Below, one piece after another: positions 42,399 to 44,244 of a stretch of DNA of 64,000 bases (positions within the stretch are counted from its first letter, which is position 1; every line of letters starts with the position of its first letter). Source of the DNA: Barthelona sp. PCE (Eukaryota); NCBI GenBank assembly GCA_040285745.1, contig JAUFOR010000002.1:868001-932000 (forward strand), written 5' to 3'. Made by a program: the position numbers and the translations under genes. The notes under the pieces were generated by a model. It searched no databases and had not been told where the DNA came from. It worked only from the letters and a program-made list of their open reading frames with translations.

Positions 42399-42671
42399 AT
42401 GGATTTTCAACGATTGCTGAGTCCGTTGTCAGTTGATTGGGCAAAATTTTCACATGCTTCAAAAGGAAAAGTGCATAATTTATTTTTGAGACATTTTCAT
42501 GCCGGATTGATACTCAGCATTACAGATTCAGTATTCGAAAATTGTTTATATCATGAAAATCTGCCGTTGAGTAGATCTTGGTTGGGCAGACGGAAGCAAC
42601 ATATTGTCACTGGTGTTAAGAAGTTATTAAACGTACAAGAGTTTTATTTTAAGGGTCTTATTCCAAAATAG
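42399..42671 (+). CDS. Candidate divergent small Tim (Tim8/9/10/13-like) protein with one Cys
   Basis: 90 aa; LILSITDSVFENCL...KQHIVTGVKKL parallels L..L.E.CF..C...E..C...C..KF; shares W..S...K...HF with the Tim9-like ORF at 43873. Confidence 0.45.
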   Translation: MDFQRLLSPLSVDWAKFSHASKGKVHNLFLRHFHAGLILSITDSVFENCLYHENLPLSRSWLGRRKQHIVTGVKKLLNVQEFYFKGLIPK

Positions 42672-42822
42672 AATGATAGAAGATGAACATTTGTAATAAT
42701 CATTGATTTGTCCTTTTTAATAAGGTGATGACCTTGTTTTGTGGTTTAGTATCTGTTTCAGAATTAGCATCAGGCATAAAAGATAGTAAATTTGTGTTTT
42801 CAAGTTTTTCAGTTTTTTTTTT

Positions 42823-43890
42823 ATGGATGTTGAAGTTTTTTCACATTTCGAATTGCCAGGGCATCTTCGATCACACTTGAATACCGAATTAGATGGGATG
42901 GGAGTTGCTAAAATGCAAAGAACGCTTCAACATTTTTCTAGCAGAGTTTCATACAATCATGAATGTATTTTAAGAGCAAAAAATCTGTTTACAAGTGAAC
43001 ACGAAAGGGTTGAACATGAACAAAGAGAGAACACACAGCTTATAGTATTACCAATTACGTTTGTATTGCGTTCAACAGAGAAAATTCAAGAAGGGATCAT
43101 TCACAGTTGTGACATTAACCCAACAAATACTTTGATGAGTGCAGGAGGAGTAGATGGACTTAGTGTGCTGAATATGAGTGGTAAAAAACACTTTTTCCGT
43201 TCGTTTACTTCTCCAGTCCGTGATTGCTCATTCTGCCCTGAATATAATTATATAATCGCTTCATTAGAGAGCTCGAGATCGCAACTAATCGATTTAGAGA
43301 CACAACATACAACACAGACATTCACTGGTCATGCTGGAAGTGTGTATTGCAACGCAGTTCACCCAACGCTTCCCCTTTTTTTCAGCGGGGGTCGTGACGG
43401 AGCAGTGTGTGCATTCGATCTTCGTCAAGGAAAACCGACACAGCGGCTTTACAGTGCTCGGTGTCCTGTTCTAAGTCTTGCAGCCAGCTTATTCTATGTC
43501 GTTGCAGGTGATCAAGATGGAAACGTTCATCACTTTGATCTTAGATCCCCTAACAAGCCTATAGTTGATACATCTGGTGTCAGGCCGATCAGAAAAATCA
43601 TTTCAGCATCTCATACTAGCTTCAGTGTGATTGATTCCCAAAAAATACGTCAGTATTACAGGGGAAACGAGTACAGATCAAAAGACCTCCCAAATAGTGT
43701 CGTGACGGGATGTTACAATACTGAGGATGGATCGACAATGCTTTTCAACCTCAAGGAAGGTATTCGTCTTGACTCCGACTTAGAAATAGATGGATCGTAT
43801 CATATGGGAGCAAATGCCTGTGTATTTGATAAGACATGTGAGCGTCTGTTTCTTTTTGATAGAAAAGGGACGCTAAGAGTTTATGAATGA
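42823..43890 (+). CDS. PLRG1: PLRG1/Prp46-like WD40 splicing factor
   Basis: DLETQHTTQTFTGHAGSVYCNAVHPT..GGRDG and GANACVFDKTCERL..TLRVY match Prp46 WD repeats. Confidence 0.7.
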   Translation: MDVEVFSHFELPGHLRSHLNTELDGMGVAKMQRTLQHFSSRVSYNHECILRAKNLFTSEHERVEHEQRENTQLIVLPITFVLRSTEKIQEGIIHSCDINPTNTLMSAGGVDGLSVLNMSGKKHFFRSFTSPVRDCSFCPEYNYIIASLESSRSQLIDLETQHTTQTFTGHAGSVYCNAVHPTLPLFFSGGRDGAVCAFDLRQGKPTQRLYSARCPVLSLAASLFYVVAGDQDGNVHHFDLRSPNKPIVDTSGVRPIRKIISASHTSFSVIDSQKIRQYYRGNEYRSKDLPNSVVTGCYNTEDGSTMLFNLKEGIRLDSDLEIDGSYHMGANACVFDKTCERLFLFDRKGTLRVYE

Positions 43891-44244
43891 TATTATTCTT
43901 TGGAAAATACTTTTTTTCTTTGGCTCAGGTAAAAGTTGTTCCTTTTCTAACGTATTGAGTCGTTCAACATCTTGTAATGGTTGATTTAGTAATATTTCAG
44001 GTTGTGAAAGAACAGTACTGCAAACAACAGAATAAACTTCATTGTATCTATCTGCAAAGTTTGCTAGTCTTCTTTTTTCAGTCAGACTGAGAGAAGCGGA
44101 TGAAAAATCATCTATACAATGTGAAAAAGCCCTAAAAGTCAATCGTTCAACATATTCTTTAACAAAACTACGTTGAAAATGACTTTGAAGTTCAATGAGA
44201 AACTTTTGCTCCTTTGTGAGAAGAGATCTCGATGACCAATTCAT
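43873..44244 (-). CDS. TIM9: Tim9-like small TIM intermembrane-space chaperone with degenerate twin CX3C
   Basis: RLTFRAFSHCIDDFSSASLSLTEKRRLANFADRY aligns without gaps to recalled yeast Tim9 [34 protein letters not shown]; start ATG 44244 (44277 alternative). Confidence 0.72.
   Translation of the reverse strand: MNWSSRSLLTKEQKFLIELQSHFQRSFVKEYVERLTFRAFSHCIDDFSSASLSLTEKRRLANFADRYNEVYSVVCSTVLSQPEILLNQPLQDVERLNTLEKEQLLPEPKKKSIFQRIISFINS

Follow-up and report, generated by a model that had tools for sequence, protein, structure and literature searches.

A divergent, cysteine-poor small Tim homologue and a neighbouring open reading frame of doubtful kinship in Barthelona sp. PCE

A stretch of 64,000 nucleotides from Barthelona sp. 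PCE (assembly GCA_040285745.1, contig JAUFOR010000002.1, positions 868,001 to 932,000 of the forward strand), referred to below as the window, is very compact eukaryotic DNA with a guanine-plus-cytosine (G+C) content of about 41% and spacers between genes that are mostly 0-130 nt long. Read under the standard code, it contains two small open reading frames (ORFs) that an earlier note on this DNA had described as a linked pair of small-Tim-like chaperones retaining one cysteine of the twin CX3C motif; both are located where that note put them, and the letters quoted from them are all there. The ORF at 43873-44244 on the minus strand, called here the Tim ORF, is supported by sequence comparison as a genuine, very divergent small Tim homologue of the Tim8/9/10/13 type, whereas the second one, ORF2, is most likely no second small Tim. 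The features of the locus are the following, with the motif cysteines of the canonical proteins numbered C1 to C4.

Ending at 42329, plus strand: EF-1alpha copy 1 (ORF table, Pfam)
42330-42822: spacer of 493 nt that contains ORF2
42399-42671, plus strand: ORF2, 90 aa, in the spacer that separates EF-1alpha copy 1 from the WD40 gene; candidate partner of the earlier note, doubtful both as a gene and as a small Tim
42823-43890, plus strand: WD40 protein, 355 aa (ORF table, Pfam)
43873-44277, minus strand: Tim ORF, 134 aa from the first ATG (ORF table)
43873-44244, minus strand: 123-aa form of the Tim ORF (MNWSS...), from the second ATG at 44244
44245-44277, minus strand: possible 11-codon N-terminal extension of the Tim ORF (sequence)
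44056-44130, minus strand: degenerate twin CX3C region of the Tim ORF (HMMER alignments to yeast Tim9 and Tim8)
44128-44130, minus strand: codon at which C1 is replaced by Ala
44116-44118, minus strand: codon of the retained C2, Cys54
44068-44070, minus strand: codon at which C3 is replaced by Arg
44056-44058, minus strand: codon at which C4 is replaced by Phe
43873-43977, minus strand: C-terminal tail of the Tim ORF, about 34 residues, absent from both relatives (alignment A1, see below)
44278-46131, minus strand: helicase with DEAD_2 and Helicase_C_2 domains, XPD/Chl1-type (Pfam)

The TAA codon of the helicase gene (44278-44280, minus strand) abuts the first ATG of the Tim ORF in frame, so that the spacer between the two is 0 nt long, and either the promoter or the transcript start of the Tim gene lies inside the helicase gene or the ATG at 44244 is used. 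The start at 44244 gives the protein an N-terminus equal in length to those of both its relatives, in neither of which the 11-codon extension has a counterpart. The WD40 and Tim ORFs converge, and their 3' ends share 18 nt (43873-43890), within the tail of the Tim protein that is without match in the relatives.

The membership of the Tim ORF in the small Tim family, proposed in the earlier note, is borne out by profile comparisons. The Pfam model zf-Tim10_DDP (PF02953), with a curated cut-off of 22.3 bits, matches the 134-aa form with 24.9 bits (E 1.4e-5) and the 123-aa form with 25.2 bits. A HMMER pass with the Tim ORF against 1,835,955,588 representatives retrieved two proteins at E <= 0.001: P0001, a transcript ORF of 91 aa from Barthelona sp. 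PAP020 (52% identity, E 1.3e-19), and P0002, a hypothetical protein of 85 aa from Eukaryota sp. GEM-RC1 (31% identity, E 3.4e-06). Among the sequences in PDB, the top match of the Tim ORF alone is yeast Tim9 (3dxr_A, E 0.13, HMMER). The profile of alignment A1, which comprises the Tim ORF, P0001, and P0002, matches eight PDB sequences at E <= 10, six of which are small Tims: one entry for Tim8 (5.2e-4), two for Tim9 (2.3e-3), one for a small-TIM subunit of a ciliate (0.071), and two for Tim10 (0.11). A profile made from P0001 and P0002 only recovers the Tim ORF with an E-value of 1.1e-27. Of the 629 ORFs in the window, this is the sole one to fall under the inclusion threshold, and none of the others matches the Tim profile.

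The Atlas language-model look-up gave the Tim ORF a recognition of 2786, and the three top clusters listed all belong to PF02953, with scores of 0.87-0.88 and 192-200 of 256 features shared. All ten of its best family-bearing matches agree on one family, as happens with a third of shuffled proteins, and this assignment is treated as a lead only. A narrower label, Tim8, Tim9, Tim10, or Tim13, was considered and rejected, since the top match varies with the method. The gapless alignment to yeast Tim9 over about 60 residues that the earlier note described holds for the core that bears the motif; N-terminal of the motif, two one-residue indels are present in the HMMER alignment to 3dxr_A.

The protein consists of a conserved core of about 89 residues followed by the unconserved tail. 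A simple codon-usage log-ratio was uninformative for both small ORFs, and a 3-periodic Markov model was therefore used instead, with 320 random ORFs as the null; by this measure the conserved core of the Tim ORF scores +0.66 bits per 100 nt, a value equalled by 0.9% of the random ORFs. The AlphaFold2 model of the Tim ORF consists of a helix (residues 22-54), a loop (55-64), and a second helix (65-90), with a mean predicted local distance difference test (pLDDT) of 52, and of a tail (residues 99-134) with pLDDT below 50.

The relatives also place the host. The GEMRC isolate, the source of P0002, has been treated as a skoliomonad (PMC11316075), and P0001 comes from a barthelonid; therefore the host of the Tim ORF can be considered an anaerobic metamonad of the BaSk clade (barthelonids and skoliomonads), closer to the barthelonids, in agreement with the guess in the earlier note of an anaerobe with a mitochondrion-related organelle. 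The BaSk metamonads are free-living anaerobes. In barthelonids, the mitochondrion-related organelles are bounded by a double membrane (PMC7542792) and their predicted proteome is very reduced (PMC11316075). Each relative yields only one detectable small Tim sequence in the HMMER and A1 searches. A word-based homologue search with the Tim ORF alone returned nothing, despite the existence of the 52%-identical P0001, which indicates the limited reach of this tool here; with A1 it returned P0001 and P0002 only. Metagenome scans for syntenic relatives, made with A1 and with the WD40 neighbour, gave pattern matches, none of which was confirmed.

The cysteine pattern of the Tim ORF agrees with the earlier description of Ala, Arg, and Phe at C1, C3, and C4, with C2 as the only survivor. 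In the HMMER alignment to yeast Tim9 (3dxr_A) the residues A50, C54, R70, and F74 of the two segments A50-F-S-H-C54 and R70-L-A-N-F74 stand opposite C1, C2, C3, and C4, respectively, and the alignment to Tim8 gives the same result. P0001 likewise keeps C2 only, while the skoliomonad P0002 keeps C1 only. The three-sequence alignment contains 20 invariant columns distributed along both helices, none of which is a cysteine, because the skoliomonad orthologue has C1 in place of C2; C86, common to the Tim ORF and P0001, is Ala in P0002. A conserved functional single cysteine was considered and rejected, as the alignment reads C2, C2, C1. The variation of the retained residue between orthologues argues that it is more likely a remnant than a new inter-subunit or metal site, and the new role that had been suggested for a cysteine shared by the Tim ORF and ORF2 is thus not supported. 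The remark that partial cysteine loss is known in anaerobes was correct: TvTim9-10a and TvTim9-10b of Trichomonas are described as keeping a single cysteine, in an organism from which Erv1 and Mia40 are described as absent (PMC3174187). Because the same exception is documented there, the Tim ORF has been filed as a divergent, cysteine-poor homologue and not as a canonical member.

Several observations weigh against this assignment or against parts of its interpretation. The defining twin CX3C motif is broken in the Tim ORF, with one of four cysteines in place, and the match of the single sequence to solved Tim9 is weak. The relatives taken alone fail in Pfam, P0001 reaching 12.6 bits, below the cut-off, and P0002 giving no match. 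The coding score of the whole 123-aa ORF is unremarkable (-1.41, equalled by 12.5% of random ORFs). The structure model is of low confidence; with it, Foldseek found no match at E <= 0.001, and the VIA-align wide search gave generic long helical hairpins only (best Z 8.2), with no small Tim listed. Since the models of both the Tim ORF and ORF2 are low in confidence, the Foldseek and VIA-align outcomes are uninformative either way. Neither the 134-aa nor the 123-aa form has an exact match in the protein collection, in which both flanking genes are present, and the Tim gene is thus apparently unannotated in the deposited protein set. Finally, a weak complex score for the Tim core with ORF2, presented below, speaks against the part of the interpretation in which the protein assembles only with itself.

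For canonical small Tims, trapping and folding in the intermembrane space depend on two disulfides made by Mia40/Erv1, and the hexamers that they then form convey hydrophobic precursors from TOM to either TIM22 or SAM. With three of the four cysteines replaced, the two canonical disulfides cannot staple the predicted helix-loop-helix of the Tim protein. The reading that we consider probable is that of a divergent, cysteine-poor small Tim of a BaSk metamonad serving as a disulfide-free, self-assembling chaperone of the intermembrane space, ORF2 most likely not being a second Tim. Homology, the cysteine pattern, the presence of orthologues in a further barthelonid and in a skoliomonad, and the lack of conservation of the retained cysteine are shown by the sequences; the location of the protein, its oligomeric state, its clients, and its independence from a disulfide relay are what we infer. 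The protein would be imported into the intermembrane space of a double-membraned organelle without oxidative trapping, and it would fold and be retained there by assembling with itself into a ring, which is most likely homo-oligomeric. Such a self-assembling, disulfide-free ring is favoured by the single sequence type detectable per BaSk relative. The ring would shield hydrophobic membrane-protein precursors, e.g., a Tim17-family channel protein or beta-barrels, and would possibly be docked on a single TIM translocase, by analogy with Trichomonas. The translocase that it serves would then be the single one of the Tim17 family, which has been reported from one barthelonid (PMC11316075).

Of the alternatives that concern ORF2, the one that survives best takes it for a true small gene, specific to the lineage, whose function is unrelated to that of the Tim gene and which just happens to be its neighbour. 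ORF2 is the longest ORF in its 493-nt gap, and an ORF of at least 90 aa occurs in 1.3% of random sequences modelled on this gap (P = 0.013); by our estimate, chance alone would yield about 0.2 ORFs as long as this in the large gaps of the window taken together. The hexamers TTTCAC, TTCATT, and TTTTCA, enriched before the genes of the window, occur upstream of ORF2 in a promoter-like manner, and were not used as strong evidence because T-rich hexamers are expected in any spacer. Its G+C content (0.348) slightly exceeds that of the flanks (0.275 and 0.265), and the G+C content at the first codon position is higher than at the second and the third. Orphans are common in the window, three of seven scanned long ORFs being without a Pfam family, and therefore a missing family is no argument against ORF2 as a gene. 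However, the coding score of ORF2 (-2.62 bits per 100 nt) lies in the range of random ORFs, 24% of the 320 equalling it, whereas two other small ORFs in gaps, described below, stand out at about 1%. Its in-frame codon log-ratio does not surpass those of the out-of-frame readings, and its Atlas recognition is 1336, as against 2786 for the Tim ORF, a value of 2300 being reached by 91 of 100 proteins of known families. The word-based homologue search with ORF2 gave nothing at E <= 10, a weak negative since the same tool missed the 52%-identical relative of the Tim ORF. ORF2, too, is without an exact entry in the protein collection. We regard it as somewhat doubtful that ORF2 is a real gene of any kind and as rather unlikely that it is one of unrelated function; it may be a chance ORF in the EF-1alpha/WD40 spacer.

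A further alternative retains the linked pair of the earlier note, with the Tim ORF and ORF2 as the subunits of a disulfide-free, 3:3-like hetero-oligomeric small Tim and ORF2 diverged past recognition by sequence. The residues on which the kinship was based, V45-F-E-N-C49 and H68-I-V-T-G72, are indeed present in ORF2, as is, in both sequences, the N-terminal pattern W-x3-S-x3-K ... HF. C49 is the only cysteine of ORF2, and the distance from C2 to C3 would be 19 residues, as compared with 16 in both the Tim ORF and yeast Tim9, so that ORF2 has neither the twin CX3C motif nor its spacing. Neither the cysteine pattern nor the shared N-terminal pattern is above chance: in a profile comparison 103 of 2000 shuffles of ORF2 match the Tim profile as well as ORF2 itself does, and ORF2, with an E-value of 9.5, ranks 51st among 571 scored ORFs. 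The comparison of ORF2 with the BaSk Tim alignment in hhalign has a probability of 0.67%, although its single alignment does pair RHFH...FENC with SHFQ...FSHC. BLASTP of ORF2 against the Tim ORF finds nothing at E <= 100. Neither a Pfam family nor a PDB sequence matches ORF2 at E <= 10. With these results and a coding signal that does not rise above random ORFs, the identification of ORF2 as a second small Tim is not supported.

Structure prediction lends the pair weak support. ORF2 was modelled as a helical hairpin of the same dimensions as that of the Tim protein, with helices at 22-52 and 59-87 joined by a loop and with Cys49 at the end of helix 1, at low confidence (pLDDT 59.5). The VIA-align wide search with this model gave generic long helical hairpins (best Z 8.4), several of the chains being common to the search with the Tim model, and no small Tim was listed. 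The complex of the Tim core with ORF2 scored 0.51, 0.43, and 0.42 (median 0.43) in prediction, as against 0.01 for the best of three controls, and was graded as weak support; at least 82% of the contacts recur between runs, and the partner has a pLDDT of at least 64, compared with 38-41 in the controls, which were unrelated natural proteins and not other helical hairpins. In calibration, 51 of 78 solved complexes came up to the mark, as did 2 of 108 mismatched pairs, while passes at 0.60 or under comprised 5 of the 78 solved complexes and all 4 passing mismatches (of 180); 7 of 44 blind neighbouring gene pairs passed. A weak pass at this level will therefore mislead in most cases, except where the prior was good. 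This prediction is the sole point in favour of a linked pair as such. The gap-length and hexamer observations, which would also suit a gene encoding a partner, have been weighed above, and we judge it quite unlikely that ORF2 is a real lineage-specific second subunit pairing with the cysteine-poor small Tim. If it were, BaSk metamonads would keep an alternating two-subunit chaperone without any disulfides, one subunit of which lies beyond sequence recognition.

Slightly less likely still is that the Tim-like gene survives as a relic, or that its product has been put to another use outside the intermembrane space (as a cytosolic protein or a decaying paralogue). The loss of three of four cysteines, the added unconserved 34-residue tail, the absence of the gene from the deposited protein set, and the extreme reduction of protein import in the clade, whose survey reports a general lack of TIM subunits apart from one Tim17 and no Tom40 identified in barthelonids (PMC11316075), might suggest this. 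Against it, the ORF is intact, is kept across barthelonid and skoliomonad lineages with its invariant columns over both helices, and has a core of coding-like composition; barthelonids retain a double-membraned organelle (PMC7542792) and, as described, pathways found in the organelle only, with the glycine cleavage system, IscS/IscU, mtHsp70, Cpn60, and Pam18 (PMC11316075); and the Trichomonas small Tims are described as functional despite the same loss (PMC3174187, PMC11145794).

The remaining neighbours of the Tim gene are ordinary nuclear genes, encoding two copies of EF-1alpha, RPC5, a VPS15-like kinase, the flagellar protein C1a-32, and a transporter of the major facilitator superfamily; besides the Tim ORF, nothing related to organelles was recognised among the scanned genes of the window. 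EF-1alpha and its upstream region are duplicated in direct orientation (40799-42330 and 46671-48203), 5.9 kb apart, and between the copies lie the Tim gene, ORF2, the WD40 gene, and the helicase gene. The copies are identical save for one extra C in a run of C near 47608-47612 of copy 2, which shifts the frame and splits this copy into two ORFs (47203-47727 and 47534-48202); copy 2 could be a pseudogene, or the extra C could be a homopolymer error of the assembly. In the stretch 40970-41055 an apparent intron of 58 nt follows codon 9 of EF-1alpha (40997-41054: GTATGC ... TCTAAC ... TAG), the removal of which would restore the canonical EF-1alpha terminus.

Two other small ORFs located in large spacers, 49793-50152 (plus strand, 119 aa) and 33503-33784 (plus strand, 93 aa), have coding scores equalled by about 1% of random ORFs and are therefore likely unrecognised small genes; neither matches a Pfam family at E <= 0.001. 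Three consecutive long ORFs, at 36648-37727 (minus strand), 37847-39712 (plus strand), and 39739-40626 (minus strand), of 359, 621, and 295 aa, respectively, are also without a Pfam family at that threshold. The Barthelona sp. PCE genome is rich in orphan or highly divergent genes. Three tRNA genes (Gly-TCC, His-GTG, Arg-ACG) are clustered at 34925-35305 (minus strand), in a 2.8-kb stretch of 32-34% G+C without a long ORF.

Cysteine-poor small Tims are already known from Trichomonas, and the Tim ORF adds a case in the BaSk lineage that is apparently unreported. We found no published report of a small Tim in the BaSk clade, for which supplementary tables may hold such an entry. According to the main text of the only genomic survey that covers the clade, BaSk metamonads generally lack TIM subunits, with the exception of Tim17 in one barthelonid (PMC11316075); the terms 'small Tim', 'Tim9', 'Tim10', 'Erv1', and 'Mia40' are not mentioned in that main text, to which the supplements may add small Tims. 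No translocase is mentioned in PMC7542792. Its conservation in a skoliomonad as well as in two barthelonids would give the strongly reduced organelles of the clade one more component of the intermembrane space and would imply that hydrophobic membrane proteins are still ferried across that space. Beside Trichomonas, the BaSk clade would be a second metamonad lineage with cysteine loss in small Tims, whether independent or inherited, in line with the view that small Tims can dispense with their disulfide staple once there is no oxidative relay. Irrespective of the status of ORF2, the BaSk small Tim family could serve as a new marker for a residual organelle in the skoliomonad reported to be without one, and the three-sequence profile A1 can be used directly to probe the other BaSk genomes.

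Among the known systems, the best solved relatives by profile are the yeast complexes Tim9-Tim10 (3dxr, 6lo8) and Tim8-Tim13 (3cjh). They have the same core length as the Tim ORF and the helix-loop-helix topology that is predicted for it, and the flanks of the motif are conserved between them (F..C..DF, a Ser or Leu in the loop, and R-Y/F after C4). The yeast small Tims have four cysteines, forming two disulfides with the help of the Mia40/Erv1 relay, and assemble into alternating hetero-hexamers, whereas the Tim ORF has one of the four motif cysteines and no recognisable partner subunit was found in the window. Caviomonads and other fornicates, members of the Fornicata, the sister group of BaSk, have reduced organelles and are described as having one small Tim that cannot be assigned among Tim8, Tim9, Tim10, and Tim13 (PMC9161772); none of them is among the two HMMER matches of the Tim ORF, and they are compared by description only. 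In Cryptosporidium, an apicomplexan parasite with a reduced organelle, one small Tim, CpTimS, has been described as forming homo-hexamers (PMC5584982, citing Alcock 2012). This single self-assembling protein, likened here by description and not by sequence, is a precedent for a ring made of one subunit.

The closest parallel is provided by the hydrogenosomal TvTim9-10a and TvTim9-10b (with paralogues A-D) of Trichomonas vaginalis. The host of the Tim ORF differs in belonging to the BaSk lineage, sister to Fornicata; there is no direct sequence match, no Trichomonas protein being among the two HMMER matches of the Tim ORF; the retained cysteine varies among the BaSk orthologues; and the protein from the window has an extra tail of about 34 residues. 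As in the Tim ORF, the host is an anaerobic metamonad, and the twin CX3C motif has been lost with one cysteine kept. The Trichomonas proteins are described as closest to Tim9 by sequence and as being of one type instead of distinct Tim9 and Tim10 (PMC3174187), and a single small-Tim ring is described as sitting on the hybrid TIM complex of this organism (PMC11145794).

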